33,556 nucleotides of DNA, taken from positions 1-33,556 of the IMG/VR virus record IMGVR_UViG_3300012948_000012; one strand, 5' to 3'. Below the pieces are notes generated by a model. It was given only the letters and a program-made list of their open reading frames with translations, did no database searches and was not told the origin of the DNA. This document shows positions 258 through 33,556 of this stretch, in pieces. The stretch comes from a virus. Taxonomy: Duplodnaviria > Caudoviricetes. Numbering within the stretch: position 1 is the first letter of the stretch; each line of letters opens with the position of its first letter. Position numbers and translations under genes: made by a program.

Positions 258-644
258 ATGCAAGTAAAACTAGATGATGAAGTCCTATTTGAAATAGATG
301 ACAGAATGATCAACCTCATGGGACATGATCTTTTAGATCCTATCCCAGATATAAAAAGACGTTTAAGATGAATTATCGAACATAAATGTGATCGATGTTT
401 CGAACGTATGGAAAAAGAATGGATGCAAAGACTTAGAAAAGATCCAAGTATACAATCAATCCCCTTACGTAAAACCGACTTTGTGGATATGGTTTTAGCT
501 CATCCTGACTATAGGAACCGTGTTCAAAGAGAGCAAGATGAGCTTGATAGACAAGCTGAACAAGCACTTAAACATCAAAAATTTTTAGAAGAAAAAGCTA
601 GAAAAGCTGAAGAGGCAAAACTTATGGAATCTTCAGAAATTTAA
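258..644 (+). CDS. Hypothetical protein, 128 aa (TGA=Trp at 369); possible tail fibre chaperone by position
   Basis: AAGGAG RBS, ATG 258; reads KRRLR-W-IIEHKCDRCFERM into the track ORF 408..644. Confidence 0.75.
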
Positions 645-1005
645 TATAGTTTTCCATTGATACATACTTAGGAAAAAGCTTTTTAGCTTCTTCATAATCA
701 CAATGGCGAAATATAACATCATCTGGGTCAAAGAAATAACAAGCGATATGAGCAGATACAATGTCACCAGACTTCACAAGGATAGCTACAAATGAAGCAC
801 TTAAAGTTGATTGTCCCATACATAAGGAATCATAGATATAAATATCATCTGTAGGCAGTCTATGAAGTTCATAGATATCAATAAATACTTGTTGATTATA
901 CCAAAAGATTTGATCGGCTAGATCTTCGTTTTGATACCATTCCTCAGCCGAATAAGCATTGGCCTTCGTAATGAGAATCAAAATAAATAGAAGCCATTTA
1001 AGCAT
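622..1005 (-). CDS. Putative secreted protein (moron-like), hypothetical
   Basis: N-terminal signal peptide MLKWLLFILILITKANA; opposite strand to the flanking tail genes. Confidence 0.65.
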   Translation of the reverse strand: MLKWLLFILILITKANAYSAEEWYQNEDLADQIFWYNQQVFIDIYELHRLPTDDIYIYDSLCMGQSTLSASFVAILVKSGDIVSAHIACYFFDPDDVIFRHCDYEEAKKLFPKYVSMENYIKFLKIP

Positions 1006-1050
1006 ATACCTCTATGGGGTAAAGAAAAAATATAACATTAGGAGTCATTA

Positions 1051-1941
1051 ATGACAAGCCCAACAACATACAAATTGGGATTCCCAAAACTAAAATACAG
1101 TGTCGTTCCTATGGCATCTGGAGCACCATTTGATAGAGATCCTACGAGTTCAGATATCTTCGATCCTGCCGTTGGTGGACAATATAAAATAGGAACCATC
1201 TGGCCTAATAAAGCCACAGGTGGAGTATGAATTCTTGCTCAGACCACGGCTGGTTCTGCAAGCTGGTTAGGTATTACCGATGCTGCTAGTGGTAACGTAG
1301 ATGGTCCTGCAAGTGCTACAGATAACGCTCTTGCACGTTTTGATGGTACTACAGGCAAGTTAATACAAAATAGTGTTGGTATTCTTAGTGATCTAGGAAT
1401 AATGACAGGTGTCAGACCAACATTGCCAGCAGGTACTACAGCAGCCGGAACAGCTCCTATGAAGTTCACACTTGGTGTAAACCTTACTGCTCCTGAAGCA
1501 GGTGCTGTAGAATATGATGGTACCCATGTTTTCTATACTAATAATGCAGCTTCTAGACAAACTGTAGCAGTAGGACCTACAAGTTCTACAGATAATAGAC
1601 TAACTAGAATGGATGGTACCGCAGGAGCTATCCAAGAAGCTACAGGAACTACACTGTCCGATGCAGATGTTATGACATTCCCGGCACAAGGTGGTGTTGT
1701 TTTAACAGCAGGTGGTGCAGGTGCTAGAAAGGGTACATTCACATTAACAGCAGGTGCTTCGGGTGATATCAACACAACAGCGGCTCTAACGGGTTCTGTT
1801 ATAGCTTATAGTATAACTGCTCTAGGAACGGTAGCAGCTCCTAAAACCATGCTGGTTACAATAACCAACGGAGTCAAGTTTGTTATCACTTCCGAAGATA
1901 ACACTGATACATCATCTGGAACATGGGCAATTGTGGGGTAA
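1051..1941 (+). CDS. Tail fibre-like virion protein, 296 aa (TGA=Trp at 1228)
   Basis: AGGAG RBS; GTIWPNKATGGV-W-ILAQ; repeated motif GPASATDNALARFDGTTG / GPTSSTDNRLTRMDGTAG; Gly/Thr/Ala-rich. Confidence 0.75.
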
Positions 1942-1943
1942 TT

Positions 1944-2081
1944 ATGCCATTAGTCAAAGGATCAAGCCAAAAGGCTATAAGACAAAACATAGAAACAGAA
2001 ATGAAAGTGGGTGGACGCCCACGCAAACAAGCAGTGGCTATAGCCTTAAATCAAGCAAGAAAATCTAAGAAAAAAAAGTAG
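1944..2081 (+). CDS. Small basic protein (DUF6496-like, PRKQAVAIAL)
   Basis: MPLVKGSSQKAIRQNIETEMKVGGRPRKQAVAIALNQARKSKKKK, translated manually. Confidence 0.75.
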   Translation: MPLVKGSSQKAIRQNIETEMKVGGRPRKQAVAIALNQARKSKKKK

Positions 2082-2903: not shown

Positions 2904-3071
2904 CTAGTTGGCAGGTTTAACCGGAATGGTTATTAGATGGCTTAATTTTGGAGACGTGTCTTGAGTTTCGTCTAGAACATCTGTAGCATTTCCATTCGTA
3001 TGAATGTTAGAAAAGCTAAGCGTGCAGCTAGACATCAGACACAACAGCGTCAATGCTAACAACTTTTTCAT
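2904..3071 (-). CDS. Small putative lipoprotein
   Basis: MKKLLALTLLCLMSSC lipobox-like signal peptide; AGAGGA RBS. Confidence 0.55.
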   Translation of the reverse strand: MKKLLALTLLCLMSSCTLSFSNIHTNGNATDVLDETQDTSPKLSHLITIPVKPAN

Positions 3072-3825
3072 TAATCCTCTTTTGTTTCCATACTTCAAAG
3101 TTTAATTTTGTTTTTTGTTCATCTTCTAATAATGTTTTTATTACGTTATTACGTTGAATTTTAAAGTGGTCCACAATACTTGTTATGAACTCACACATAA
3201 GATCTTGTTCTTGCCTATAGCGTTCCATCAACATAGCCTCATTATTTATACCATCATCTAAAACGCACACAGATCGATCAGGTTGCGAGATCTCACCTTC
3301 AATGTATCCAATCCCTATAACATCACTAAAAAGCTGTCTAGCTAGCCTAGAAATCGTTCTTGCATAAAGCATGTCAATTGGTGTTCTCTTTCAGCCACCC
3401 TTCTCTTTTACAAGACCGGCTTGTTGAGCTTCTTCAATTGTAAAGCTTGCGGTATGTTCTTCGCCCGTATCTGACCTGATACCTTTGATCACACACTTTG
3501 TGTTTGTTGATTCGATGATATGAAGTTTGTGTTTGGCTCGTCGAATTAAAGCCGACATGACTCGAGCTGATAGTTCTACTTTGCCTTCTATTATATGTAA
3601 GCCACCATTCAAAGCCTGCGCTGGGCCTATACCATACTCTCTAGCAGCAAGCATAATCATCATGATAGCTGATTCTTTGCCTACGTTTCGGTACATTTGA
3701 CTTTCATAGGCATTCTTCGCTCAGGTTTGATAGACCATTAATTCTTGTTCCGTGGGGATAGTTGTCACCATGCTATAGTCAGCTGGCGCCATATAATTCT
3801 TAGTTGTTGGCAAGTATTTATCCAT
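3028..3825 (-). CDS. Single-strand annealing recombinase (RecT/Red-beta-like), 265 aa (TGA=Trp at 3721-3723 and 3391-3393)
   Basis: GGGGAG RBS; joins two track ORFs in frame via GG-W-KRTPIDMLYARTISRLAR; motifs GLHIIEGKVEL and FTIEEAQQAGL; near an exonuclease gene. Confidence 0.8.
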
Positions 3826-3833
3826 GTCTCCCC

Positions 3834-3980
3834 CTAAAGTAAGCAGTTGTCACACCCACAAAGGCAGTAGCAACCTTGATTTTTTTCTAATTCGTAATCA
3901 TCATCATATTCTTCATCTTCATAGTCATGTTGGTTATCACCTATGATCTCCTCTTTGCTTCATTGACTCCAATAGTTCAT
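3834..3980 (-). CDS. Small acidic Cys-rich protein (TGA=Trp)
   Basis: MNYWSQ-W-SKEEIIG...GCYCLCGCDNCLL; AGGAG RBS, TAATG coupling. Confidence 0.55.
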
Positions 3981-4210
3981 TATAAACTCCTTAAAGCTTC
4001 ATATATTTCTCTAAGATAATCATCCGCTTCTTCCTTAGAGTAAAATTTTCCAAAAATAAAATTTCTATTATTATTTTGTCCAAAAACAAGATAGAAGCCC
4101 CGACTTAATTTATCGTACCAATCTGAATTTCTTTGTTGTATGAAAAAGTTGTTAAAATCATTTAAATTATGTAAAGAGCTGTATTTAGTTATGAATCATT
4201 TTTTATCCAT
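3980..4210 (-). CDS. Hypothetical protein, 76 aa (TGA=Trp at codon 5)
   Basis: TAATG coupling at both ends; MDKK-W-FITKYSS... Confidence 0.6.
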
Positions 4211-4743
4211 TACTTACCCCAAAAATGTTTGTAAATATCTAAGCATTTAGAAAATAAATCAAAATGATCATCATAGACGTAGAGATGTGGAGGTGCACCA
4301 TGCTTGTCTAGATGTAAAAAGTGAATTCCTTTGATATCATAGCCGTGTTGCTTGGCTAAATACTTGTAGGCTGAGCCTTGAATGGGTCAGGTTTTTGAGG
4401 GCTTATAAGATGTTTTTAAATCTAGAATAACGGCCCCTTCTGGAGCTTCAATGATCATATCGACTTGTCCAGTGATCATCAACTGAGAGCAAAAGAAACG
4501 CTGTTCTATGGCCAAGACTTTTGTGTCATGCTTCCACCAGAACTTAAACGAGTCTACATACCCTTTGATTTCATCATCTATATCTCATTCACCTAAGCCT
4601 TTGACGATTGCTTCGCAAACATCATGGACTTTTGAACCACGTCTTGCAGCATTAGCCAGGATATCTTTAGGTATTCTATCTAATCCACTAAAAGGTGAAA
4701 GTACTTCAGTTACTCTTATGTAGTCTTTGTTTATTTCTTCCAT
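4210..4743 (-). CDS. PD-(D/E)XK exonuclease (RecE/AddB/Cas4-like), 177 aa (TGA=Trp at 4585-4587 and 4387-4389)
   Basis: Absent from the track; RVTEVL...RGSKVH...ITGQVDMI...ILDLKTS...KT-W-PIQGSAY motifs. Confidence 0.85.
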
Positions 4744-5596: not shown

Positions 5597-6592
5597 ATGA
5601 TAGCAAATTCATCTCAAGCGACAGCAGAAGTCCTAGAAATAGGCAAACTTCATATCGAAGGGAATGTAATCCCTCATAATTGGTATCAAAATATAAAGGG
5701 GCCTACAGGGAAAACTGACTTAGAGGCAATAATAATCTTATCCGAAATCTTATATTGGTATCGACCCACATATATAAAAGATGAAAGCAGCGGCCAAGTA
5801 ATAGGAATAAAGAAAAAATTTAAAGCTGATGCTCTTCAACGTACAAAAAAATCTTTTGCAGAACAGTTTGGCTTAACCGAAAGAAAAGTTCAAGAAAGCT
5901 TGGCTTTGCTTGAAAAACTTGGATTGATAACTAGAGATTATCGAACCGTGCTCCATGGGGACGTTGTATGTTCTAACGTGTTGTTTATCAAGATTCATCC
6001 AGAAAGAATAAAGGAAGTAACATTCAAAAATGTCATAGCTATGGCAGAATTCTGCCATACCCCCCCCACAAATTCTACCATACCATTGGCGGAAATCGGG
6101 CATACGTATACAGATAATACTCCACAGATTACAACAGATACTAATACTCCTCCTATACCTCCTCATTCAGGACCACCCGATCCACCGGCTTCGCCGAAGC
6201 CAGCTAAAGCTGGCGGGATGGATTTGGAAGTTTCTAAGTCATTTTCTGAAGAAGTCAAGAAAGTTGGCCAAGAAATGGTTGCTATTCTTAAAACTGATAA
6301 ACCAACGTATAAAGTTCCTTCAAACTTGACGCAATGGTATCAGGCTATTGATCTTATGATTCGATCAGATCATCGACAGGCATCTTTGATTATTAAGGTT
6401 TTCGCATGGGCCGTCGCAGATGAATTCTGGAAAGACAAAATGTTTAAGCCTAATCCAGCTAAGTACTTAAGAACCATGTTCGATCAGCTTGAAACTAAGA
6501 TGAATGCCAAGCCTATGAAAAATCCAAATCGTGTTGATCGTAGGACCAAGGATGCTGATGGCAACCCAATTTATGTGAAGCCGAGGTTTTAA
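5597..6592 (+). CDS. Phage replication initiator (lambda O-like, winged-helix N-terminus, Pro-rich linker)
   Basis: GNVIPHNWY...ILSEILYWYRP...FAEQFGLTERKVQESLALLEKLGLITR; C-terminal DEFWK...PAKYLR..FDQL; followed by a DnaC-like gene. Confidence 0.8.
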   Translation: MIANSSQATAEVLEIGKLHIEGNVIPHNWYQNIKGPTGKTDLEAIIILSEILYWYRPTYIKDESSGQVIGIKKKFKADALQRTKKSFAEQFGLTERKVQESLALLEKLGLITRDYRTVLHGDVVCSNVLFIKIHPERIKEVTFKNVIAMAEFCHTPPTNSTIPLAEIGHTYTDNTPQITTDTNTPPIPPHSGPPDPPASPKPAKAGGMDLEVSKSFSEEVKKVGQEMVAILKTDKPTYKVPSNLTQWYQAIDLMIRSDHRQASLIIKVFAWAVADEFWKDKMFKPNPAKYLRTMFDQLETKMNAKPMKNPNRVDRRTKDADGNPIYVKPRF

Positions 6593-7101
6593 TGCTTAAG
6601 CCTTTGAACCAAAGCCAAGATGTAATTGATTGTTTGGAAGAATTTGCTAGTGATCCCAAAGAATTTATTATATTGTCAGGAACCAATGGTTCCGGTAAAA
6701 CATATGCTGCAATGGCTGTTTATGAAGTCGTAACTCCTTATGTTTTACCAGCATACGATTATGATATAGCTTATTTTTCAACTCAAGTTGATTTAAACAA
6801 TCGATGGAAGCAGATGATGAAAGATTATGGAGATACCCAGTTTTTATCTGATCAGATTGTAGGAGCTAAATTATTTATTCTTGATGATTTAGGAACTAGA
6901 ACGCCTTCTGATGCATTCATGGATTTTCTTTATGAGATTGCAGATAAGAGATATACACATCGAAAAACTAGAGGTACGATAATAACTACCAATTTGAATG
7001 CCTTCGATATGAGAGAGAAGTTTGGGGATGCATTTACCTCTCGTGTCAGTTATAACAAATGCTTTAGGTTGGACTATGAAGATAGGCGCATAATCGCATA
7101 G
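6592..7101 (+). CDS. DnaC/IstB-like AAA+ helicase loader
   Basis: Walker A GTNGSGKT, Walker B LFILDDLG, TIITTNL, SR, EDRR. Confidence 0.9.
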   Translation: MLKPLNQSQDVIDCLEEFASDPKEFIILSGTNGSGKTYAAMAVYEVVTPYVLPAYDYDIAYFSTQVDLNNRWKQMMKDYGDTQFLSDQIVGAKLFILDDLGTRTPSDAFMDFLYEIADKRYTHRKTRGTIITTNLNAFDMREKFGDAFTSRVSYNKCFRLDYEDRRIIA

Positions 7102-7948: not shown

Positions 7949-8125
7949 ATGTTTTGAAGCTTATTATTTTTATTGTTTTTAGGCCTTCAGCTTAGTGGTT
8001 GTATAGCCTGAAGTTGGGTATGGGTATGTGCTCCTTTATGGGGTCCGGTGGTTGTTATAATTGCAGCCCTGGGATTAGCAGTTTTGTTTGCAGCCATCGT
8101 TGCTACGATACAAAAGAGGCCATAA
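7949..8125 (+). CDS. Small two-TM membrane protein (WSWxWVxAPLW family; TGA=Trp at 7955 and 8009)
   Basis: MF-W-SLLFLLFLGLQLSGCIA-W-SWVWVCAPLWGP...; motif common in phage membrane proteins. Confidence 0.8.
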
Positions 8126-8325
8126 TGGATCGTTATCAAGAACTGAAAGAGTATGTCAAAGATTATCTTGAACATATGGATGAACTTAACGAAAAAAAGA
8201 TAGCTTGCAATGAGAAAGAACTAGAGTTTCTAAGAAAAGAAAGCGTGTGTTTTAACCTGTTGCAAAAAAATTTTTTAAGGATGGAGGCTGAAGATGTTAT
8301 ACCCGAAGATCAACAGTCTCTATAA
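8125..8325 (+). CDS. Hypothetical coiled-coil protein
   Basis: TAATG coupling, GAGG RBS; MDRYQELKEYVKD... Confidence 0.6.
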   Translation: MDRYQELKEYVKDYLEHMDELNEKKIACNEKELEFLRKESVCFNLLQKNFLRMEAEDVIPEDQQSL

Positions 8326-8989
8326 GAGACACGGATGGTACTTTGATGAAAAAGACAAGAAGAATACTTCTTCTGAGCTACAAAAGAACAGACAGTCATT
8401 TATCATAGGGGACTATGCTTGTCCTGAGTTTGAATCTATTAATAGATGGCAAATTGATGAAAAGATTGATGGGACAAATATCCGTGTAATTTGAGAACCT
8501 TGGGCAGAAAATCCTGTTACGTTTGGTGGGAGGACACCTAATGCTCAAATTCCTACAGGGTTATTACTGCATCTTCAAAAGACTTTCACAAGAGCTCAGC
8601 TATTTAAGCATTTTCCCGTATGCCATAGGGTTGTATTTTTTGGAGAAGGTTATGGGCCTAAGATTCAAGCAGTAGGATCTAAATATCGAAACGATGTTTC
8701 TTTTATTCTCTTCGATGTTTGGATTGATGGATGGTGGCTAGAAAAAGACACAGTAAAGTCCATTGCTGATGATCTAGAAATAGAACATACTATTGGCGGA
8801 GATATCTTAAGTACTCAAGAAGTTGTTGACTTTGTTAAGTCTAAACCCATTAGCTACAGCTCTGTTGATCGCTCCTTAGTCATGGAAGGAGTGATCGCCC
8901 GATCTTATCCCCTTATGATGTTTAGACAGCGTGGAGCGCCTATAATGTTCAAACTGAAAGTCAAGGATTTTCCAGAATGCAACGTATAG
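8294..8989 (+). CDS. ATP-dependent RNA ligase, Rnl2-like, 231 aa (TGA=Trp at 8492)
   Basis: Nucleotidyltransferase motifs YPKI, EKIDGTN, FGEGYG, FILFDV, EGVIAR and KLK all in one frame once TGA is read through. Confidence 0.85.
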
Positions 8990-9435
8990 TCTTATCCGGT
9001 GATCCTGTTGCCCAAGCGAGAGCTAGGATATTTAGACGGGGCAATCGAGTTATGACTTTTGACCCTCAAGCAAGTTTAAAACGCGAGCTAAAGATACAAG
9101 CCAAGCTACAATTAAAGAATTGAGTGATGCCTAAGTATCCGAGGGTTTCTTTTAGATTCTACATGCCTATACCCAAAAGTATGAAGAAAGAAGAACGCAA
9201 GTTGGCTAATGATGGCTTTTTGAAACATGTCAAGAAGCCTGATGTGGATAACTTGATTAAGTTGTATCTAGATGTTCTTTCTGGTATCGCTTTTGAAGAT
9301 GATAATTGCGTCTCGTTAGGTTCAGCAATCAAGATCTATAGCCTTATGCCTAAAACTGTTATCACTATTTGTGAGCATGATAAGTTAATATCCATGAATG
9401 AAATATGGAGTGTCACTGAAGACACTCCATTTTAG
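8977..9435 (+). CDS. rusA: RusA-like Holliday junction resolvase (TGA=Trp at 9121)
   Basis: GDPVAQARAR N-terminus joined in frame to KPDVDNLIK...D...EDDNCV. Confidence 0.88.
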
Positions 9436-10114
9436 TCACTTTAGGATAATTATTATAGACCCTTCCTATTGCTGCATGGGTCCATAAGTCGGATGTTCTA
9501 GGTTTGATTCCGCGGCTATTCATCTCGCTTGCAATGTCACGTAATGACATGCGCTTGCGTTTACGCATATTATACATAATACGTAAAGCTTCAGCTTCGT
9601 AATCGTCTATCAATAATTGCTTATTAACGACTTTGAAGCCATACGGAACATGTCCCACCCGTTCACCCTTGGCTCGCTTGGCAGCTAGAGCTTTTTTGGT
9701 TCGTTGTCTAATACGATATCTTTCATATTGTGCAAAGCCTCGTATTAGTGTCGTCATCAGAGCGGCTACTCCTGGGTCCATCCCTGAATAATCTTCCATG
9801 ACGCTAATAAGCATACATCCTTTCTTTTCTATCTCATATTGAAGGATAGCAGCTTCCATGACGTCACGACTTAGGCGGTCATGGTTAGCAACTAAAAGAG
9901 TATCACCTTTTTGTAAAGCGTCTAATGCTTCATTAAGCTGATCTCTCTCTTCCATTCGTAAGCCAGAGCTGACTGCCTCATCTTTGTAGACAACGTAGTC
10001 AGCTTGACCTTTTTTTGTTAGATAATCGAGACAGGTTTGTAATTGGGCTTGTATACCTAGACCAGATTTCTTTTGTTCTTCTGTAGAAACGCGCAAATAG
10101 ATTATGTATCGCAT
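9413..10114 (-). CDS. Serine recombinase (resolvase domain plus recombinase domain); apparently ends at TGA
   Basis: YLRVST, DRLSR, FAQYER, GHVPYGF, IASEMNSRGI...W. Confidence 0.9.
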   Translation of the reverse strand: MRYIIYLRVSTEEQKKSGLGIQAQLQTCLDYLTKKGQADYVVYKDEAVSSGLRMEERDQLNEALDALQKGDTLLVANHDRLSRDVMEAAILQYEIEKKGCMLISVMEDYSGMDPGVAALMTTLIRGFAQYERYRIRQRTKKALAAKRAKGERVGHVPYGFKVVNKQLLIDDYEAEALRIMYNMRKRKRMSLRDIASEMNSRGIKPRTSDLWTHAAIGRVYNNYPKVTKMECLQ

Positions 10115-10351: not shown

Positions 10352-10585
10352 CTACTCAGGCATTAACTCCCTAGGCGAACATCCTAGGGCATGGGCTAAC
10401 GCTATTATATTCTCTAAAGCAATGTTACGTTCACCACGTTCGACAGAGCCAACATACGATACACTGAGACCAGCTTTCTCAGCGAGCAGTTCTTGAGAAA
10501 TATCGATAGCATATCTTTTTTTTCTGACTATAACTCCAAAAGCCTTTCGTACCGCAGTTTTTCTGCGATCATGCCAGCGAGCCAT
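10352..10585 (-). CDS. XRE-family HTH transcriptional regulator
   Basis: SQELLAEKAGLSVSYVGSVERGERNIALENIIALAHALG. Confidence 0.92.
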   Translation of the reverse strand: MARWHDRRKTAVRKAFGVIVRKKRYAIDISQELLAEKAGLSVSYVGSVERGERNIALENIIALAHALGCSPRELMPE

Positions 10586-10593
10586 CTCTCCCC

Positions 10594-10633
10594 CATCTAG
10601 GGCAACTAATATGAGAGATATCAGCCCTAGATG
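10594..10633. promoter_or_regulatory. Perfect 10-bp inverted repeat upstream of the XRE gene (operator or RNA hairpin)
   Basis: CATCTAGGGC-N20-GCCCTAGATG. Confidence 0.5.
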
Positions 10634-10654
10634 AAAGAGACTATGAACGCTATT

Positions 10655-10927
10655 TTAAGGTAAACGGCCGTGTATCTCTACGATCGTACCACATATATTA
10701 AGACCATGTTCTATAGCAAACAAATTTCCCGGAAGTTTTAATAAAAGCCCTTCATCATTTATGACCCAGTCCCGTCCTTGATGGTGATAGATATCAATGT
10801 AACCACCCACTTGTTCTTGTAAGAATTCCAATAAGCCATCTCTTGGTAACTCAACTGTTTTTTGACAAAATGTTGACATGTCTCGGTTATCATTAAGCCA
10901 TTCGGATCTATGTATCGTTGCTAACAT
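10655..10927 (-). CDS. DUF3846-like protein
   Basis: LEFLQEQVGGYID...VINDEGLLLKLPGN...ICGTIV. Confidence 0.75.
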   Translation of the reverse strand: MLATIHRSEWLNDNRDMSTFCQKTVELPRDGLLEFLQEQVGGYIDIYHHQGRDWVINDEGLLLKLPGNLFAIEHGLNICGTIVEIHGRLP

Positions 10928-11130
10928 GAGGCCCCCTGCAATGATTTTATTAACCTTGCATCTGGTCTCTTGATTATCTTTCCCCCAAGCTCAAAGCCAT
11001 AAGCTAAGGGCAAGCGTTGTTTCAACAAATGTATGATATCTTCTTGAGTTTGTATGTTAAAACCATCCATAACCCAAGATTCATGGACATGTACTTCTAT
11101 AGTCCATTTCACAAAGTCTTTTTTCTTCAT
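10921..11130 (-). CDS. Hypothetical protein
   Basis: GGAGGTG RBS before ATG 11130; KWTIEVHVHESWVMDGF. Confidence 0.7.
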   Translation of the reverse strand: MKKKDFVKWTIEVHVHESWVMDGFNIQTQEDIIHLLKQRLPLAYGFELGGKIIKRPDARLIKSLQGASC

Positions 11131-11226
11131 AAATTCACCTCCACTCCATGTTTTTGTTGAAGGGATACTATACACTTAACACAATATTTAGCATGCATTG
11201 TTTGATTGAAGTAGGTAGCATCCGAT

Positions 11227-11244
11227 GGGGCTATTGCTAGCCCC
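11227..11244 (-). terminator. GC-rich hairpin after the J-domain gene
   Basis: GGGGCTA-TTGC-TAGCCCC; no U-tract. Confidence 0.4.
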
Positions 11245-23325: not shown

Positions 23326-23338
23326 GAAACGGGTGAAT

Positions 23339-23968
23339 ATGAGTGAAGAATCCATAGAACAACTAGAACCTGTCGCCGAGGAACAAGTTGTTGAAACACC
23401 AGAGGAACAGGTTAGAACTGTTCCATTGGAAGCTCTAGAAGCAGAACGCAGAAAGAGACAAGACGTAGAAGCACAATACCGTGTTCTACAAGACATGATG
23501 AAAACTCCAACTAAACAGCCAGAGATAAATCATGAAGATGATGAAGAGTTTATCACTAAAGCAGAGATGCGAGAAAGGATGCAAAAAGCAACTTTCTCAA
23601 ACAAGCGAGAAGTCCTAGAGGAAGCTTTCTGCGACTCTAAGCCTGAAGCTGTGCAAATGATAAATGAACATCTAGAAGAAATAATTAAGCGAAAACCCTG
23701 ACTAGCTCAAACGATTGAATCTGCTCATAACCGATATGCTAGAGCATATGAAATAGTACAAGACTATATGCCTAAAGAAACTGCCCCATCTTCCAAGTTT
23801 ACGAGACCGAAAGATGAGGCACGGAAAATCGTAGAGAATTCCCAGAAACCTGGAAATCCTGCAACGATAGCCAAGGCACCAAATGGTAGCAATTTAGATT
23901 ACCTAAAGTCAATACAAGGGAAACCTGAGTTCAGAGAATACCGTAAAAAGATGCTGTCAGGGAGATAA
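23339..23968 (+). CDS. Probable capsid scaffolding protein (TGA=Trp at 23699)
   Basis: Acidic N-terminus, VPLEALEAERRKRQ coiled coil, position directly before the capsid gene. Confidence 0.75.
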
Positions 23969-23985: not shown

Positions 23986-24927
23986 ATGGCCAATGGTATG
24001 ACTACCACCACGCAAGTAGATCCTGAGGTTCAGATCTACTTCGATAACGTGTTGTTAGACCGTCACCAGCCGTATTTTGTATATGGCTATTTCAGTCAAC
24101 AAAGACGAATCCCTCAAAAGAACTCAAAGCAAGCTATCTTTAGACGTTTTGAGAACTTAGCCGATGCCCTGACTCCATTGTCAGAAGGTGTCACACCTGC
24201 TCCTGAACAAGTAAATAAGTTCGATGTTACTGCTGTTGTATCCCAATACGGTAAGGTTGTAGAACTTACAGACGATGTAATCATAACTGTCCAGGATGAA
24301 ACCTCTAATGAAGTCGCTGACATGTTGGCGCAAAACCAAGCAAGTACTTATGACAAAACCATAAGAAACATGTTGGTTGCTACAGCATCTCAGATTTCAT
24401 GTCTTAATGGTGTTAACGGAAACGCTATCACCGAAGTCACAGTTACAGACCTTGAGTTAGCTATTGACTATCTTGTTGGAAACAACGGTAGACGTATGGC
24501 TCCAAACATCGAAGGCCGTAACATGGAAGGTACTGCTCCAGTTTGGCAGGCTTACTGAATGGTTATCTCTACAGACCTTAGAACTAACTTTAAGAACTTA
24601 GCTAACTTCGTGCCTACAGCTGCATATCCAAGACAGCAATCTGTTCTTGAAGCTGAGCTAGGTGCATGTGACGAAGTTCGTATTGTTATGACAACTGAAG
24701 CTTTTAAGTCTACAGCATCTCCTGCGGTTTATTCTAACCTCATGTTTGCTGCTAATGGCTATGGAACCATTGCTATAGATGATCAATCTATGGAAATGAT
24801 CATAAAGCCTCTTGGAGCTGGTGAGGACCCTCTTAACCAACGTAGTACTATGGGCTGAAAGGGACGCTTAGGCTGTACGATTCTCGACGATAGTTGGGTC
24901 ATAAACCTTTTAAGCACAAGACCATAA
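23986..24927 (+). CDS. Major capsid protein, N4-gp56 family, 313 aa (TGA=Trp at 24556 and 24856)
   Basis: IFRRF..L....TPLSEGVTP, QYG, ELG...EVR, DPLNQRSTMG-W-K. Confidence 0.93.
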
Positions 24928-24937: not shown

Positions 24938-25630
24938 ATGAGTGTAACTAATTTTGATGTAGCAAACATCGCAGTCTTTACTTTGATTTCTGGAGGTGTG
25001 GCTTATAATATAACCCTCCCTTTCGAAGCAGATACAATAGAATGGTATAACTATACTAAGTATGGTACCAACACACAGAACCTTCAAGGAATCTGGTTTA
25101 ATGGATTCCCAGCTGGCGATGCTCTGATCATTGCCCGAGGAACAACTGACTTAACATCGACGTTAGAAACAACGAACGGTGTTACTGAGTTGTCTACAGG
25201 CACTGGCTTTACAGCTACAAACGTAACACCTACAGCAATCAACACAACTACTTCTGTAGTTACTGCTGCTAATACGTTCTTAGAAGGTCAATTTGTACGT
25301 GGTACTAACTTCAGAGCTACTCCTGTTGGAAGTGCCACGGGATGCTATGGTTTAAACAACCGAGTATTCCAAATAGGCACTGTATCTAGCACTACATTCG
25401 AATTGCTAGAACCCTATACAACTGTCAAAGCAGACTTAACTGGTGAAACAGCTTTCGTCAATAACGGCGTAGCTAAATTTAACCTGATTGGTCAAGACCT
25501 TGGCACTGTAAACCCAGCTCCAACCTTTAGATACACTTTAGGTTCTGCTGTTATGGGTAACGACAATGATGTGATCTGGATTAGAGCTATGAAAGCTAAT
25601 CAATTCACTGACCTTGGAGATGTAGCCTAA
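24938..25630 (+). CDS. Virion structural protein (decoration-like)
   Basis: GGAGG RBS; Thr/Gly-rich beta protein directly after the capsid gene. Confidence 0.65.
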   Translation: MSVTNFDVANIAVFTLISGGVAYNITLPFEADTIEWYNYTKYGTNTQNLQGIWFNGFPAGDALIIARGTTDLTSTLETTNGVTELSTGTGFTATNVTPTAINTTTSVVTAANTFLEGQFVRGTNFRATPVGSATGCYGLNNRVFQIGTVSSTTFELLEPYTTVKADLTGETAFVNNGVAKFNLIGQDLGTVNPAPTFRYTLGSAVMGNDNDVIWIRAMKANQFTDLGDVA

Positions 25631-25980
25631 TGCCCAATACCGAGCTTGGATTTGCTACGACTCAATTAGTACCTACGGCAATCACTAAAACATTGCCTGT
25701 GAGAGTTACTATAGAGGGTCATCAACTTCAAGCTGGGCAAACCTTGCGGGCAACGAGATTCTATGCGTTGCCCCTTGTTGATGCTACCGGTATGGAACAG
25801 CTTAACAACAAGCTGTTCGTTATCGGTAACATCACAGAGGATACGTTTGATTTATTTGATCAGTATGGTGAACCCATAGACGGTACAAACTATACGACAT
25901 TTGTCAATAATGGCATTGGTCAATTCAATCTAACAGGTCCTGCCTTATATACTGAAAATCTAAATACCCAAGAGGGATAA
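25630..25980 (+). CDS. Virion protein with E1-FCCH-like beta domain
   Basis: AITKTLPVRVT..GH....GQ...GMEQLNN...F....DGTNYTTF; similar to repeats in 27681-30371. Confidence 0.6.
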   Translation: MPNTELGFATTQLVPTAITKTLPVRVTIEGHQLQAGQTLRATRFYALPLVDATGMEQLNNKLFVIGNITEDTFDLFDQYGEPIDGTNYTTFVNNGIGQFNLTGPALYTENLNTQEG

Positions 25981-26429
25981 TGAAGAAACAAAAACAAGAA
26001 GAACCAGAGATCACATTCTCAGAAGAGAAAGAATATGATCCCTCTGAGTCGTTACCAACAAAACTAGAACACTTCCCCATATATAATAAGTGGGCAAGAA
26101 AGAACAAGATACCTGTGAAGGTTCCTTCAGAAGACTTTTATCCAAAAATGAAAGTTAGATTCCAAAGATTTCATCAACCTACAAATGTTCTGAAATGCCG
26201 AGTAAGAAACAAAGATATCGACTGGTCCGGTCAATTGATCCCAGGATGCGTTTATGATCTTTGTATCCCTGTTATTCAATGATTAACAAGCTTAGCCGAA
26301 CCTGTTTATGCAGAAGTAAAGGTTAAGAATGATGCAGGTGGTGGACGTTTTGTAGAAAGAACAGAAACCCAACTTGTAGGTGAAAAAGCTAGATTTAGCT
26401 GCCAGCCTATGGAATTTTCTCATAACTAG
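25980..26429 (+). CDS. Hypothetical protein (TGA=Trp at 26280)
   Basis: Read-through IQ-W-LTSLAEPVY to TAG at 26429 fills the gap to the next gene. Confidence 0.75.
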
Positions 26430-26436
26430 GTAGGAT

Positions 26437-27099
26437 ATGGCCAAGACAGCTAGTGATATTATAACCATCATGCGTGACGTCACAGGACGTGTTGACAGTA
26501 CTGACCCTCAGTTTTCTGACACGATTATGCTTGGCTATATCAATGATTTCTACACTCTTGAGATGGGTCAAGAGTTACGTCTAAAAGAGAGACGGACATG
26601 GTGGGAATTTGTTATTAATGATACAACAGCAAATCCCCTACCTGTTAATCTCCAAGAACCATTCGGTGCTCCTACAGGTGTGCAATTCACAACCATAGGT
26701 CCATTCTGTACAGCTGATGGCTTTGAAGTTTTCTGGTATGAAGATCCTGCTGAGTTCTATGCAGTATGACCAGAGACTCAAACTTATCAACCCCAGAGAC
26801 CGACATATGTTTTGTATTATAACAATACACTGACATTCAGAGGGCCACCCGATAAAGAATATGCCATAAAGATTAATGCCTATCAGGTAGAAATCCCAAT
26901 GGATCAGTTGGATTCAACTATTAATCAAGACTATCTATGGAGATACGTGGCTTATGGAGCTGCCCGTGATCTTCTGAATGACTATGGGGAAACTGACAAA
27001 GCCACACTCATAGCTTCAGCTTTTAATGATTATCGTTCTAAAGTCTATGCTAGGACTTACCAACAGCAAATGACTCAAAGATCAACACCAAGGTTTTAG
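26437..27099 (+). CDS. Head-tail adaptor / tail tubular protein A-like (TGA=Trp at 26767)
   Basis: Two track ORFs in frame; MLGYIND..., FRGPPDKEY, YVAYGAA; position in the tail module. Confidence 0.7.
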
Positions 27100-27681
27100 A
27101 TGACTTTTAACATTGTAGTCCCAGCATCTGCTGAAAGTCCTGGGGTATTTCCTGCTCAGAATAATACTAACTTTGATCGTCTTAGAGCTAATATCAATAA
27201 CGATCATAACTTTCAAAACACTAATGCAGCCGATCAAGGTATACATAGACAATGCACTATGATCAACCGTGCTACCCCTGTTGGTCCCTTAGCAGCAGGC
27301 AATGGTATCCTTTACTCCAAGAATGATGTAAACGGTAATGCACAACTTAACTGATATAATGGCAATTCCAATGTTGAGATAACACCTGGTGTGCAGCTTT
27401 TTGAAGGTACTACTCTAGTTGCTCCAGCAGTACCACAAACTGTCTTTGCTGATCCTGGATATTCCTACAATGCTACTCTATGGTACGTGATATCTGGAAC
27501 AAACACTATAAGCCTTAATTCAGCGTATCTAATTCAGCCTGGTATGGGTGACAGTGATATTGAAAACATTAAAGGACAGTCCAATGTATTTGCCTTTAAT
27601 GGAAACGACATTCAATTAACTAATAACACACTAGCCAACATTACTTACAAATGGGCTATCACAATCTCTAGGTTAACCTAA
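27100..27681 (+). CDS. Tail-associated protein (TGA=Trp at 27352)
   Basis: Two track ORFs joined by QLN-W-YNG. Confidence 0.7.
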
Positions 27682-30371
27682 TGCAATATCAAGGCTATCT
27701 GATTGGTAACTTTGCAACTGGTTATGATAAAGAGCTACAGCCTTGGTTAATTCCTGACGATGCTCAAGATCAGCTATTAGATGGTTTTGTCTATAAAGGT
27801 GTATGACAAAAGCGTGATGGCTATAATCAATATGCTGATGGTGCTAGGGGTGGTGCTCCATATTGTGAATCAAGAATGATTCATACTATCACGATCAATG
27901 CTAACCAAGTCCCTAATGGTATTATAACTGTTTTTACTTTTAATATTCCAGGATCAGCTAATCCTTTAAGACGTGGGGGATTCCGAGCAATAGATAAGAC
28001 TGCTCTAGGAGTTCAATCTCAAATCATACAAGATAACGGTGTTGGTGGTACACTAGCAGGTTCTGATGGAACTATAGACACCACACTAAACTACACAACT
28101 ACTCTTGCTACGCCTCAACAAGTAACATTCACAGTTGCTCCCCCTATAGGTCATACAGTTACTTTAGAATTAGATATCCATCAAGGATTCCCAGTGATGG
28201 GAGTCATGAATTTTTTTACTCAAACGAATACTAGAGAACTGATTGTTGCTGACACTACTTACGTTAATCGATACAATGCTACCACCAACAGACTAGATGA
28301 CATTAGTCCTACAACCTTACTTACTGGAACTAATGTGAATTTCATGTCTTGGGTCAACTATCCAGATCCTCAAGACAGGCAAAGACTTTTATTCGTTAAT
28401 TTTAAAGATCCAATACAGCAATATAATGGTACTACAGTAACACCTTATCCTGTTTACACCGCTAGCTTACAAATCACTAATACTCCTTCAGGCGTTTTAG
28501 GCAATGGAACCACTGGTCCTTATGTGATCAGCACGCCAGCAAACACAGGTATATTTCCGGGCAGTCTTTCTGTTATTGATGTAACGGGAGTTCAGACAAT
28601 CACATTTGATCAATTTGGTGTAGCAAGTGGTGCTGGTACAGGTACCGTTAACTTTTTGACTGGTCAAATCTCAGTAACGTTTAATGTTGCAGTTGGCGTA
28701 GGAAATGCTATCAATTTAACTTATTTGCAACAAAATACACCGATCACTACGGCTTTACATATTTTCCAATTCAAGGATCGCTTGGTTGTCTTGTATACTC
28801 AAGAAGGTGGTGTACAATATGGTCATAGAATCAGAATATCCGGAACTGGAGCTTTTGGTGATGTCTTCACTTCTAACGCTATAGGCGCTGGTGTTATTGA
28901 TATACCTGCTGATCCTTTTATTTCTTCCGCAGACTTCAATAGAGACGATCTGTTGATCTTTCTTAGGGGTGAAGCATGGAGTATGCGTTTTACACAAAAT
29001 GACGTAACACCGTTCGTTATAGATCGAATTGATGGCACTAGAGGATCTGATGCTCCATATGGAACTATTACTTACCTTAATGCAACAAACGCAGTCAGTA
29101 ATATAGGTTTCATAATCTCTGATGGCTATTCCATTGAAAGATCTGACTTGAAGATTCCTGACTACTCATATAATGAAATAAACCAAGAACAATTTGGTCT
29201 TTGCTTTGCTGGGTCTGTAGATCAAGATAGAGATCATTATCTTATTCATCCTACTCCTCAAAGCAATATCTCAGACCGTATACTTATCAGCAACTATGAA
29301 GAAGGCAACTATGCAATATACCGCATCCCTCTAAGTTGCATGGGTAACTATATAGAGTCCAAGACTATAACCTGGAATGATCTACTTAAATACAATACCT
29401 GAGCCGAGATGGCCACAGACTATGGTTCTTGGAATGCGTTTGGCTTTGCTAAAGATAATCCTATTACGATTGGCGGAGGTCATGAAGGACAGATAGTCAG
29501 ATTGAATAACGTAGAGACTGAAGACTATCCTGTTAAGATTCGTAACATGACAGTGATAGATTCTGAAACATTAAGAGTTACTACTGACTTCACGAATTAT
29601 GAGATAGGTGATGTTATCATTCTAGAAGCTGTCACTGGTATGGTACAAGCTACCCAGAAACAAGCAGCTATAGTTGCTAAGCCTTCTGCATATGTTTTCG
29701 ATCTAGATATTGACACTACTGGATTTTCTAGCTTTACACCAGCAACAGACTCAGGATTAGCTTCAAAGGTTATCATCTTTGATTGTAAAACCAAGAAGTT
29801 TAACCCATTTGCTAACCAAGATAAAAAGGTAAGCTGTGGATGGGTATATTTCTACGTGTCTTCAAGCGGTACAGATATCACAACCAATCGAAATATCACA
29901 GCAGCTACCCAAACAAATCCTTGTGTATTGACAGTACCAGGACATGGATATACATCAGGAACTCTGATTTATATTAATGGTGTCCAAGGAATGACTCAAC
30001 TCAATGATTTAAATACTTTCATTACAGTTATAAACCAAAATACTATCTCTTTAGATCAAGTCGACTCTACTGCTTTTTCAGCCTATACATCTTCTGGCTT
30101 TACATCGACTTCCGTAGATGGAATCCTGAAAGTTTATTGCATTAGTAATGACACAGAACAACCAATCAGTGTAGAACCTTTTAATCCTTCACCTTTCCAA
30201 GTCAATCTATCCAGTCAATACGCAAGCAACGGCATTAAGAAATGGTACAAACTATGGATCAATCAGACCGCTAGATTTATCCAATTGCAAGTTGTAAATG
30301 ATCAGGCAGGAGTAAACATGGAAATACACGCAATCATGCCTGGCTTTGCAGGCATAGGACGGTTAATCTAA
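27681..30371 (+). CDS. Tail nozzle / tubular protein B-like, 896 aa, with FCCH-like inserts (TGA=Trp at 27804 and 29400)
   Basis: TAATG coupling; LQPWLIPDDA...GV-W-QKRDGY; beta-propeller-like FKDRLVV..RIRISG; single frame. Confidence 0.75.
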
Positions 30372-30646
30372 TGCCCAATCTAATGCCTAGATTCAATTGG
30401 GGAACCGAGGTTAAGAATGTAAACAAGACATTATATAACCAGCTTAATGATTCATACTCGGCCACGGCTAGCGTTATCAACAGTAAGCCCAGTAAACAAG
30501 TTTTTAGAACAGACCCTCCAGCAGATGATCAAGTCAACATAGGATTCAATCAAGGCGATATCTGAATCAATGAAGCTACAGACAATGCTTGGATATTAAC
30601 ATCAAGAACTACAGCCACCGCGGTCAACTGGCAAATCATAACTTAG
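30371..30646 (+). CDS. Small virion protein (TGA=Trp at 30563)
   Basis: GDI-W-INEATDNAWIL...VNW, same motif as GTIWPN...VWIL...ASW in 1051-1941. Confidence 0.75.
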
Positions 30647-30653
30647 GACATAT

Positions 30654-31355
30654 ATGGCAGATTTAGGAGCAGGCGCCTTAGGCGTAGCATCAGGAGCAGC
30701 AACAGGTAGTACATTCGGTCCTGTAGGTACAGCTATTGGAGCAATAGGTGGTGGCCTACTAGGAATGTTTGGTGCAAACAGAAAGAAGAAACCAAAGAAA
30801 CTTTCAACTTTAGATCCTACACAAAGAGGGATCTATAATGACTATGCATCTGGCCTTAGAGGTGAAGGTGGCAGATTTGGTAATATCTTCAATTTTGATG
30901 CTAACCAAATGAAAGATGTCTTTCAAAAGATGTATGCGAACCCTGCATATCAAAATTTCCAAGAAAACATAGTTCCCAGTATCACTGGAGCCTTTAGAGG
31001 TGGTAACTTACAAAACTCAAGCTATCTCGGGGGGGCCTTGTCAAAAGCAGGTACAGATGTACAGAGAAATCTTGATGCTCACTTGTCCAATATGCTTTAT
31101 CAAGGGCAGCAAGATGCGGTAACCCGTAGAGCACAGGGAATTCAAAATCTACTTGGTATGCAGACATTCGCATATCAACAGCCACAAGCCAGTGCTGGAG
31201 ATAATGCTTTTAGTGCCTTAACTCAATATGGCGGCCAAGCTCTTGGAAACTTAATAGATAACAAATTCGGTGGAGGCTTCCAAGGAACCAAACCAAATTT
31301 ACCATCTGGTGGAACCACTAGCACTAGTGGTATAAATCCAAAGATGTTCTCATAA
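30654..31355 (+). CDS. Probable DNA ejection/pilot protein
   Basis: Gly/Ala-rich hydrophobic N-terminus GAATGSTFGPVGTAIGAIGGGLLG, Gln-rich body. Confidence 0.65.
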   Translation: MADLGAGALGVASGAATGSTFGPVGTAIGAIGGGLLGMFGANRKKKPKKLSTLDPTQRGIYNDYASGLRGEGGRFGNIFNFDANQMKDVFQKMYANPAYQNFQENIVPSITGAFRGGNLQNSSYLGGALSKAGTDVQRNLDAHLSNMLYQGQQDAVTRRAQGIQNLLGMQTFAYQQPQASAGDNAFSALTQYGGQALGNLIDNKFGGGFQGTKPNLPSGGTTSTSGINPKMFS

Positions 31356-31364
31356 GGAGATAAG

Positions 31365-32288
31365 ATGCCAAGCGCACAAGTAATAGATTTTGGTGAGGAT
31401 CCCTATGCAAACGCAGTAGGTGGTTTTGCTAAGTCCTTTTTAGGAGCATTGAATGAAAAAACAGCACAGAGACGTAATGAACAACTCTTTGAAAAGATTA
31501 AAGACAAATATGGGAAAGATGCCAAAGGTGAAGATATATTAAGAGATGTTGTCTTTGCAGAAGGATTCGATCAAAGCTACAAACAAGATCTCATCAAAAA
31601 CCTCAAAGAATATGCTACGCTAGCGAACAAAACTGATAAAAATCTGTATGAACAAGCAAAACTTGATCAAAGAAAAGAAGAACTTGACGTTAGAAAAACA
31701 ACCAATGAGATAGCTTCAAACAGACTAAAAAATGAACAAGCTAAGACAGCCAATCAAGAAGATAAGAACCTAAAAGCTACAGCTAAGGATATCAATAACT
31801 ACTCCAGTAAGTTTCTAAAAGATAATGAACTTTCTCTAACTCCCAACGATAAAGCTGATATAAATCTTTTCACTGAACAGTTCATGAAAAACAAGAAACA
31901 AGGACTTACTGAAGCTTTCAATGATGCCTATAAGCTTATAACAATGCGTAGAGAGAAGATTGATGATGTGAAGATCACTCCTTTTCCTTCTTACTTTATA
32001 GGAAGTCCAAACGAGGCAGAAATAGAACCAGCCATGCAAAAAGCTTATTTGGAACTTAAGAATCTATATGAACAAGATGGTATAGACAATCAAAGTGATC
32101 TTAGATCTATAGCAGAGAGATCAGGATGACCAAAAGAACTAGTAACAAAGATGCTACAGAGAATCTTCAAAGAAGATGGTAGAACTCTTAGAGTAGCAAC
32201 ACCTAAACAATCTGCCAATATTCCTAGGGATTTACAGGGAAAAACTGAACAACTAGCAAGCGTAGATGATCTATTGTTTGGAGAGTAG
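31365..32288 (+). CDS. Probable internal virion/ejection protein (TGA=Trp at 32127)
   Basis: AAGGAG RBS; helical; read-through ends at TAG adjacent to the next ATG. Confidence 0.7.
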
Positions 32289-33556
32289 ATGTTAACATTA
32301 GAGCGCATTAATAAAGCCAGACAAGCGGGATATGATGATGATGCTATTGTAGATTCTATCTCGCGAAATGATCCAGCATTTGGTGAACGCATTAGTAAAG
32401 CCAAAAATTCTGGATATGATTCCTCTGCAATTATGCAATCTATAGAACGAAAGTTAAATCAACCTTTGCTGAGTTTATCCTCGGATCAAGCTGGTAATTC
32501 CGTCAATGTAAAACAGCTTTACAAACAAGAAAAACGTGATGTAAAGCCAGACTCTAAACTTAATGTAAAGCAGCTTGACAATGAGAAGAATTGGTTTGAT
32601 CACTTCGCTGAAGGCATGTCACGATCTGTGAGTGGTGGTGCTCAAGAATCAAAGATATCTGAAGACCCTGGATTCTGAAATGGTCTAATCCAATTTAGTG
32701 GTGAAACACTAGGTGATTTACCATACATGGCAGCAGGTGGCTTCTTAGGAGCAAAGCTAGGAGCAACACTTGGTGCAGGAACTGGATCTGTAGCTGGTCC
32801 CGCAGGAACTGGTATTGGTGCAGGGATTGGTGGTGTTCTTGGTGGTGGGTTTGGTTCTCTAGCTTTACCAACTTTTCTTAAGCAAGCTATGAAGGAATAT
32901 AGAGACTATGCCAATAAAGGAAATGATATAACATTTGGTGAGTTTCTAGAACGTGCAGACCGAATAGGCAGTGAAACGCTTAATTCAGGATTGATGGGTG
33001 TCATCCTAGGACAACTAAACAAAGCAGCTCCTTTGCTTAAAGATTTACCAGGAATAGGCAAACTTTTTACAACTAAGATTGCACAAAAAGGTGCTGAGAT
33101 TGGCTTAGAGACAGCAGCACTTGGAACGATTCCTAAAGCTAGCCAAGGAGAGATCCCTACATCAAGAGACTATGCTGAAGCCTTAGCTATTGTCTTAGGC
33201 CTTAACGTATCAAGAATACCTTCCAAAGTAAGAGAAAAACTCCAAAAATCTGGAGAAGCTAGTGGTAAATCTCCTGAAGAGTTTATCAAATCTTACCCTT
33301 TAGAAGAAATCCAGCAAGTCGGTGAAATACTGAAAGCTGACCCTGAGATAGTGACTAATAATGTAAAGCAGCTTTACAACACCAGATTTACAACTGAAAA
33401 AGGTTCAACCTATGAAGTTAATGAAGATGGTAGCACTAAGAGAAATAAGAAGTTTAGACCTGAACATGGCGAAGCTGAACAAGGTGAACAACCTAAGAGT
33501 GAATCAACTAGATATGTAAAGCCAGAAGATGCAGAAAAACTTTCAGAATTTCAAAC
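32289..33556 (+). CDS. Large internal virion/ejection protein (partial; TGA=Trp at 32676)
   Basis: A(R/K)xxGYD repeats, glycine-zipper segment; frame open to the window end. Confidence 0.75.
32507..33378. repeat. Three copies of a 17-bp palindrome TGTAAAGCAGCTTTACA
   Basis: Perfect at 33362-33378; one mismatch each at 32507-32523 and 32564-32580. Confidence 0.8.

Follow-up and report, generated by a model that had tools for sequence, protein, structure and literature searches.

How a phage can read UGA as tryptophan in a host that reads it as stop, and how such recoding begins, are questions raised by virus record IMGVR_UViG_3300012948_000012 of IMG/VR (Caudoviricetes), which comprises 33,556 bases (38% G+C) and is 83% complete, ~7 kb of the genome being absent. 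This whole stretch, here called the window, was found in soil metagenome runs. In-frame TGA codons interrupt its terminase, portal, capsid and other genes, and it carries a remodelled tRNA-Trp(CCA) that is a candidate UGA decoder. The relatives most used for comparison are G003 (contig L005), a complete recoded genome; G004, which has the tRNA-Trp and three in-frame TGA codons; and the sisters (G005, G709, G711, L186 and L207), whose structural genes contain only TGG.

In-frame TGA codons and their aligned residues

Comparison with homologous sequences makes the reading of TGA as Trp in the window secure. The window set of 60 genes contains 41 in-frame TGA codons, about 36 of them sense codons, close to the ~35 in-frame TGAs claimed in a preliminary description made from the sequence alone. 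Trp is among the four commonest residues in homologues at 30 of the 41 sites; one other (in RusA) is TGA in homologues too, seven have no homologue coverage, and three (7955, integrase 9415, and 14270, which lies 5′ of a likely start) have no Trp support. Codon columns were tallied, with window TGAs masked as X, against the best 80 of 103 relatives from a capsid search of IMG/VR, among which 21 sites had homologues. The 951 codons aligned at these columns include 683 TGG, 15 TGA, 91 Phe, 31 Tyr and 1 Gly; for comparison, TGG sites of the window align with 1985 TGG and 21 TGA among 2432 codons. In the capsid, the W191 column is TGG in 80/80 relatives and the W291 column is TGG in 79/80 and TGA in 1/80. 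The three columns of the terminase large subunit (TerL) have TGG in 43/45, 48/49 and 53/54 homologues, the remainder being TGA, the probable scaffold column has 75 TGG and 1 TGA among 76, and both metallophosphoesterase columns are TGG in 16/16.

Under code 11, 31.7% of the window lies in stop-to-stop frames of at least 200 codons; the share is 54.5% with TGA open, a larger gain than with TAG (33.7%) or TAA (41.0%) open. The full-length products proposed in the preliminary description (TerL, 495 amino acids [aa]; portal, 675 aa; capsid, 313 aa; and an 896-aa virion protein) have matching lengths under table 4, the W position is TGA in all five Trp motifs that it quoted, and two genes that it added, an exonuclease at 4210-4743 (phrog_298, E 1.7e-25) and a membrane protein at 7949-8125 (phrog_1374, E 8e-14), belong to real families. 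Scans did not bear out its labels “tail nozzle” and “N4-gp56,” giving instead “virion structural protein” (phrog_3287) and Phage_capsid_4/phrog_1357.

Nonsense mutations in a decaying prophage, assembly errors, and a Gly or selenocysteine meaning of TGA are, taken together, exceedingly improbable. Recoded genes have neither in-frame TAA/TAG nor frameshifts, and three further genomes place TGA at other Trp columns. Homologue columns are mostly TGG, in line with the Trp meaning proposed in the preliminary description, and the single Gly excludes Gly or random residues there as well as membership among code 25 phages (TGA = Gly). Assembly error, a concern raised beforehand, is excluded by contigs of two origins, a possible source run and a second study, in which every covered TGA has identical letters; the second study covers part of the sites, its pieces spanning, e.g., 8492, 18854, 18940, 19975, 26280, 29400 and 32127. 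Run X3 gave a single short and weak match. Runs X1 and X2 have the same 255-base loose end within the portal gene (21724), perhaps from a co-occurring relative.

C is enriched immediately before sense TGA (window, p 0.005; other recoded genomes, p 0.04), and restriction-site avoidance was rejected as the cause, CCTGG being undepleted in the window. A bias toward A/C at +4 (window, p 0.008) was dropped, with p 0.52 in other recoded genomes. Hidden TGA sites were also sought in all frames, but antisense frames swamped the signal, and gene-anchored counts took the place of that search. CCTGG is nearly absent from G003 (0 versus 16.7 expected) and G005 (3 versus 51), unlike the window and G004, which suggests that host restriction systems differ within the clade.

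Double meaning of TGA and a candidate decoder

TGA is distributed by module. TGA:TGG counts in the window are 20:51 in late structural genes and 15:25 in middle genes (together 35 TGA versus 76 TGG), and 0:36 in a TGA-free set (integrase, repressor-like helix-turn-helix [HTH], DUF3846, DnaJ-like, DUF29, replication and RtcB genes). This set was picked after looking, and modularity was therefore retested in complete G003, where the integrase, DUF3846, DnaJ-like and RtcB homologues have 0 TGA and 15 TGG and structural genes 24 TGA and 39 TGG (p 0.004; p 0.0004 with recoded fragment L014 added). RtcB has no TGA in any of the three, with 7 TGG in the window, 6 in G003 and 6 in L014.

Furthermore, TGA still ends genes. 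All four homologues of the gene at 13914 stop at residue 67-68 (TAA, TAG, TGA and TGA), and the window's TGA (14118-14120) is a true stop that overlaps the ATG of a 40-aa open reading frame (14117-14239). The integrase TGA at codon 234 (9415-9413) is likely also a true stop, judging from its homologues: the first stop of the G003 integrase, again TGA, falls there, and others end mostly at 228-248. Recoding thus appears likely to be restricted to lytic modules, with the standard code kept in likely dormancy genes. That one codon has two meanings suggests, in turn, that the host uses the standard code and that decoding switches in the course of infection.

The candidate decoder (Table 1) folds into a 7-bp acceptor stem, a 4-nucleotide (nt) acceptor/D linker and a 4-bp D stem stacked on a 5-bp anticodon stem, with a CCA anticodon in a 7-nt loop, nucleotide 26 absent and G73 at 16758. 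ARAGORN with default settings missed it in the window, reporting solely the degenerate element directly 5′, and the preliminary description had overlooked it as well. An odd tRNA or tRNA-like element occupies this position in three of four carriers (window 16537-16613, L005:2169-2260 and L132:4321-4406), the one in G003 having a long variable arm and a UCU anticodon.

The exact core motif of the tRNA occurs in two further IMG/VR records, G003 (40 in-frame TGA) and G004 (3). In JGI metagenomes it was found in another relative, L132, which has TGA at likely Trp sites, and in the G004 copy, the window itself and one chance match (L134); L135, identical to the window, and L133, identical to G004, were excluded from counts. 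A looser pattern run on IMG/VR recovered only G003 and G004, besides five chance matches that have no T arm. When the four divergent copies are laid on the window's own fold, 98.8% of cells are paired, compared with 40-47% in slid controls, and 12 of 21 pairs have changed on both sides; the G004 copy lacks two D-stem bases. A covariance-type model built from the four copies scored all other sequences at ≤36 bits and had no strong match in 22 other relatives that are ≥90% complete; all carriers found belong to the clade described below. The top anticodon-stem pair is a G-A mismatch in the G003 copy and A-U in the window copy. Linkers of host-type chlamydial tRNA-Trp are canonical. In these chlamydial tRNAs (L146, L151, L152 and L153), the lowest anticodon-stem pair is U-G, a feature that might increase background misreading of UGA.

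Neither the 83% of the genome in the window nor complete recoded G003 yielded a UCA tRNA, and scans of five genomes detected no domain of a release factor or tryptophanyl-tRNA synthetase (TrpRS) in any of them. On the strength of its distribution and of published CCA tRNAs with loosened cores, tRNA-Trp(CCA) likely decodes UGA, and it would be charged by host TrpRS because it keeps CCA and G73.

UGA-dependent genes of the clade and its host

UGA dependence is older than the window's own recoding. RusA has an in-frame TGA at one shared codon in 8/8 clade genomes examined, and 11 outgroup genomes have no in-frame TGA in any homologous gene. The two halves of RusA on either side of this codon have pN of 0.04-0.30 and pS of 0.31-0.98 (0.6-0.98 in most sister pairs), values that argue for purifying selection on both despite near-saturated synonymous sites. 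The base after the UGA is A in G004 and all five sisters. Re-initiation downstream is less likely because the next Met, at +2, +9 or +14, is not conserved in position. The preliminary description had called recoding “partial or recent”; this needs qualifying, since recoding is restricted to lytic modules, some TGA stops remain, and a RusA TGA common to the whole clade places UGA dependence before the window's lineage.

The RNA ligase depends on UGA in several forms. The window and G003 have sense TGAs, and G004 has TGA at codon 10, where the sisters have TGG. In 5/5 sisters, codon 27 lies in AAGGAG-TGT-CTT-TGA-C, and the protein continues in the +1 frame (L096:12147-12170, L163, L167, L186:7153 and L207:10067). 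The Shine-Dalgarno (SD)-like element, 3-nt spacer and CTT TGA C reproduce the architecture of the frameshift site of prfB, the release factor 2 (RF2) gene, which reads GGAGG-TAT-CTT-TGA-C in 5/5 chlamydial genomes. The frameshift motif had 21 matches, 5 in sisters and 16 unrelated, and 13 more distant RNA ligases (of 14 returned) have neither TGA nor a prfB-type site. In G004, which has the tRNA, just three TGAs are in frame: in the RNA ligase, RusA and one small gene. Lytic genes of the sisters end in TGA in 0/73 cases versus 78/726 in other relatives, these being related genomes and not independent; a fuller gene set of G709 has TGA stops in 3/32, including HTH and the 13914 homologue. Sister genomes labelled “standard code” thus contain, unnoticed, genes for RusA and RNA ligase that look broken yet are under selection.

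Two clade-specific proteins of 66 and 79 aa are candidates for switch agents. Atlas searches with both gave no usable family, and structure prediction of chlamydial RF2 together with the 66-aa protein lent no support (score, 0.05; mark, 0.32). Scans for promoters and terminators did no better than chance.

Among the best 80 of the 103 relatives, structural genes are recoded only in L005 (G003), L006 and L014, largely at different Trp columns, and the nearest capsids (92-94%; L001 to L004 and L079) use TGG only. The recoded label needs two changes in the capsid tree, in which the sisters adjoin the window (98/92). A terminase-plus-portal tree of 18 hand-picked rows unites the window, L014, G003, L006, the sisters and basal G004 in one clade (99/99, 99/95), with weak placement of the sisters. 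TerL identity to cultured phages is ≤44%. In the simplest history, an ancestor gated two enzymes, RNA ligase and RusA, by UGA, and TGA later spread in some lineages; an on/off switch is the likely origin of the recoding. Capsid matches in L061, L074, L075, L076 and L080 span 1,158-1,277 bases rather than 939, which suggests insertions such as introns or inteins.

The host is quite probably a member of the Chlamydiota, and likely an environmental, standard-code one. The 75-aa protein encoded in the window belongs to a family found at six GTDB loci, including a Parachlamydiaceae chromosome (dxr–rpsL interval) and a Chlamydiae metagenome-assembled genome (MAG); of the other four, two lie in records titled Acidobacteria and Verrucomicrobia, one lies on a phage contig of a Bacteroidales MAG, and one is a weak match. 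The record titled Acidobacteria (L085, G256) and that titled Verrucomicrobia (L082, G405) have chlamydial-type tRNA-Trp, and G256 falls within the chlamydial phylum sample. No plasmid matched the 75-aa protein. TerL matches with E<1e-100 occur in 24/401 Chlamydiota genomes versus 0/300 in the phylum of the Bacteroidales MAG, that MAG aside. In addition, G289, from the chlamydial phylum sample, has the window's terminase-to-tail gene order on a 137-kb contig that also bears the housekeeping genes kdsB and pyrG. The segment (G289:C1, ~56,000-73,300; L224 and L225) is a prophage remnant with a split terminase, syntenic with the head-tail module of the window. The terminases matched in Chlamydiota genomes (L097 to L120) are ~50% identical, several of them lying in whole chromosomes. 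No relative emerged when GTDB contigs were scanned with a capsid pattern. No TGA occurs in the valS/ileS-type matches listed (the 150 best of 387, and 150 of 187); those 187 come from the 68 lowest-scoring or extra genomes, and ~218 genomes of the phylum are represented.

The remaining genes are placed in Table 1. A run of small membrane/coiled-coil genes occupies 13536-14506, including the 40-aa frame described above, which was uncalled, and outgroup genomes each have several paralogues. Genes at 24938 and 25630 (region 24938-25980) are partly paralogous, with cross-hits of ~40%, and a related domain, E1_FCCH-like, is found again in the 896-aa protein.

Table 1. Features of the window, with in-frame TGA codons and the basis of each assignment
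Feature	Position	Strand	TGA codons	Basis or remarks
RecT-like annealase, small gene, exonuclease	3028..4743	-	Sense: 3723, 3393, 4198, 4587, 4389	Family scans
Replication initiator and DnaC-like loader	5597..7101	+	0 TGA/6 TGG	Family scans
66-aa helical protein, coupled to RNA ligase	8125..8325	+	No Trp codons	5/5 clade, 0/11 outgroup genomes
RNA ligase	8294..8989	+	Sense: 8492	PF09414, E 8.6e-12; clade-only among 16 genomes compared
RusA Holliday-junction resolvase	8977..9435	+	9121 (codon 49)	PF05866, E 2.7e-23
Serine integrase	9365..10114	-	Sole TGA (9415-9413), likely stop	phrog_95, E 4e-52
Likely lysogeny/early cluster (XRE repressor-like HTH, DUF3846, DnaJ-like, others)	10352..11938	-	No sense TGA	G003 homologues also TGA-free
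Small membrane/coiled-coil gene	13914..14120	+	TGA stop	4/4 homologues end alike
75-aa membrane/coiled-coil protein, host marker	14279..14506	+		Family occurs in chlamydial chromosomes
Metallophosphoesterase	14506..15138	+	Sense: 14632, 14779	PF00149
Degenerate tRNA-like element, no readable anticodon	16537..16613	+		Directly 5′ of tRNA-Trp
Remodelled tRNA-Trp(CCA), candidate UGA decoder	16685..16757	+		Rfam tRNA, 28.9 bits, E 0.034; fold
RtcB RNA ligase	17194..18372	-	0 TGA/7 TGG	PF01139, E 3e-67
79-aa protein, 5′ of terminase	18490..18729	+	No Trp codons	4/4 complete clade, 0/11 outgroup genomes
Terminase large subunit	18898..20385	+	Sense: 18940, 19531, 19975	Family scan, homologue columns
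P22-like portal	20655..22682	+	Sense: 20784, 21414, 22110	PF16510, E 1.9e-68
Probable scaffold	23333..23968	+	Sense: 23699	Function from position; homologue column
Major capsid	23986..24927	+	Sense: 24556, 24856	phrog_1357, E 6e-39
Remaining virion and ejection genes, including 896-aa protein (27681-30371)	24938..33556	+	Sense: 26280, 26767, 27352, 27804, 29400, 30563, 32127, 32676 (gene-set count)	Family scans; last gene cut by contig end

A lytic switch and its alternatives

The reading that we hold somewhat better than even is that of a likely temperate phage of ~40 kb in a Chlamydiota host, with UGA read as Trp during lytic growth, a CCA tRNA as switch and RF2 probably lowered. The host would read UGA as stop, so that in lysogeny only TGA-free genes would be made and RusA, RNA ligase and virion proteins would be truncated. 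During lytic growth, phage tRNA-Trp charged by host TrpRS would insert Trp at UGA, misreading it through the altered junction of D stem and anticodon stem. Activity of host RF2 would probably fall at the same time, because the capsid gene has two UGAs, the reported near-cognate effect is ~2.5-fold, and the sisters hold an RF2-sensing site. In evolutionary terms, UGA control of RNA ligase and RusA would be ancestral, followed by a TGG-to-TGA spread through lytic genes. A more ambitious joint claim is possible, at somewhat below even: that the clade lowers RF2, senses the drop through the prfB-type site and the RusA UGA, and decodes with a new CCA tRNA architecture, all stages in the birth of recoding being preserved (two gated genes without the tRNA; the tRNA with three sites; genome-wide recoding).

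Several findings weigh against the favoured reading. The effect of ~2.5-fold in Escherichia coli is far below the need of a capsid gene with two UGAs, and no RF2 antagonist was identified in the phage. Complete sisters G005 and G709 carry the RusA TGA and no tRNA-Trp was found in either, so the tRNA is unnecessary for the RusA TGA. Its region lies outside recoded fragments L006 and L014 and sisters L186 and L207, its fold rests on just four copies, and, without canonical core positions, it could function poorly. TGA is present in RecT, exonuclease and SSB-like genes, so that “lytic only” differs from “late only.” As to the host, the closest TerL in a bacterial genome (68%) is on short contigs of the MAG titled Bacteroidales, and only 9 of 400 Chlamydiota genomes have any capsid match, at 45% identity for the best. 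In the three chromosomal TerL regions examined, nothing but TerL or HTH is in common with the window, and the portal and capsid of its phage family are missing; a second prophage or gene transfer agent (GTA)-like type thus appears to be common in Chlamydiota.

Two alternatives bear on the same evidence. With the same host and tRNA, RF2 might not be lowered and the sisters might have no timed switch: fixed leaks would hold two harmful enzymes low, and the tRNA alone would decode the TGAs that spread. This is rather unlikely in our estimate, though the complete sisters without the tRNA and the absence of an identified antagonist fit it, as does the A that follows the RusA UGA in the sisters and G004, the context most misread by tRNA-Trp in E. 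coli according to the available part of PMC5289835. It accounts less well for G004, in which a tRNA accompanies so few TGAs, two of the three being in RusA and RNA ligase, that targeted control is indicated. Avoidance of TGA stops in lytic genes of the sisters, related as these genomes are, and a prfB-type site that by design reports RF2 level also speak against fixed leaks, and efficient capsid synthesis through two UGAs against full RF2 fits poorly with the modest effect in E. coli. Alternatively, the phage could be adapting, after a host jump, to an undescribed host lineage that uses code 4. TGA in early recombination genes is consistent with such a jump, as are the two changes in the capsid tree, where heavily recoded genomes are not one clade, and the ~218 phylum genomes among the valS-type matches leave lineages unsampled. 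It nevertheless seems quite improbable, because integrase, repressor-like, DnaJ-like and RtcB genes are TGA-free in independent recoded genomes, TGA still ends genes, and the prfB-type site of the sisters requires UGA to be a stop. Furthermore, no recoded genome appears among the valS/ileS-type matches listed, and a GTDB-wide survey gives no chlamydial case in its available text (PMC13695967, 0 occurrences of “chlamydi”).

Comparison with known recoded systems

Gut phages of standard-code hosts that read TGA as Trp, e.g., the Agate and Jade clades, have UCA suppressors, with TrpRS and RF1 in two cases, according to the portions available of bioRxiv 10.1101/2021.08.26.457843 and PMC11210395, and phage UCA pairs have been tested experimentally (PMC12636597, available text). 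The parts of these accounts at hand describe structural genes in which TGA means Trp, a portion of the genome that keeps the standard code, and close standard-code relatives, all features of the window's phage, and share the proposals of a mid-infection switch and of tRNA gain before recoding spreads. In contrast to Agate and Jade as described there, the window's phage is from soil, has ~40 kb, and is likely temperate with a likely chlamydial host. Unlike phages with UCA suppressors or code change operons, it has no UCA tRNA, RF1 or TrpRS that could be found, and its candidate decoder keeps CCA. The RusA TGA and prfB-type site of the sisters have no counterpart in the available account of Agate and Jade. 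According to the text available of bioRxiv 10.1101/2021.08.26.457843, a TGA suppressor turned up in just 35% of the code 4 genomes, the other 65% having no detectable suppressor tRNA, and noncanonical tRNAs were suspected; the CCA tRNA is a concrete candidate for a tRNA of that sort.

A CCA tRNA-Trp with a loosened top of the anticodon stem raises UGA read-through ~2.5-fold in E. coli, and tRNA-Trp(CCA) with a 4-bp anticodon stem is described in Blastocrithidia, Condylostoma and “Ca. Zinderia,” alongside the Hirsh G24A and A9C suppressors (PMC13092985, as far as its available text goes). Compared with the Blastocrithidia type described there, the phage tRNA also combines a CCA anticodon, change outside the anticodon and a genome that reads UGA as Trp, whereas the window copy keeps all five stem pairs and G24, has a 4-nt acceptor/D linker, and has lost nucleotide 26. 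The G003 copy alone has a top pair that is unpinned in the Blastocrithidia manner (G-A mismatch). The window's tRNA is also phage encoded, and the word “phage” has 0 occurrences in the available text of PMC13092985. “Trp” does not appear in a paper that deals with atypical tRNA cloverleaves (PMC5389517).

The autoregulatory +1 frameshift motif of prfB is documented in the available parts of PMC12421855, PMC5289835 and PMC5009743. The sisters' site shares with the motif presented there SD-like purines, the 3-nt spacer, CTT TGA C, a location at approximately codon 26-27 and continuation in +1, and differs in its gene, a phage RNA ligase instead of a release factor, and in its genomes, those of the sisters and not the window; the text at hand of PMC5009743 mentions no prfB-type site in a phage gene. 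UGA as Trp is further shared with code 4 bacteria and their phages (Mycoplasmatales, Zinderia, Eggerthellaceae and Minisyncoccia in the available text of PMC13695967). Reassignment in those bacteria, as presented there, is genome wide, whereas UGA here has a double meaning and the likely host phylum has prfB. Literature covered mainly as titles and abstract openings, besides the papers cited here, held no recoded chlamydial phage, phage CCA-type UGA decoder or prfB-type site in a phage enzyme.

Against this background, the clade supplies a small candidate decoder, a 73-nt CCA tRNA overlooked by standard scanners, together with two short UGA-dependent elements, two clade-specific small proteins and complete genomes at different stages, and it suggests that environmental Chlamydiota have temperate tailed phages. 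The recoding itself is of a known kind; new are the CCA decoder candidate, the clade-wide RusA UGA gate, the borrowed RF2 site and the likely chlamydial host.

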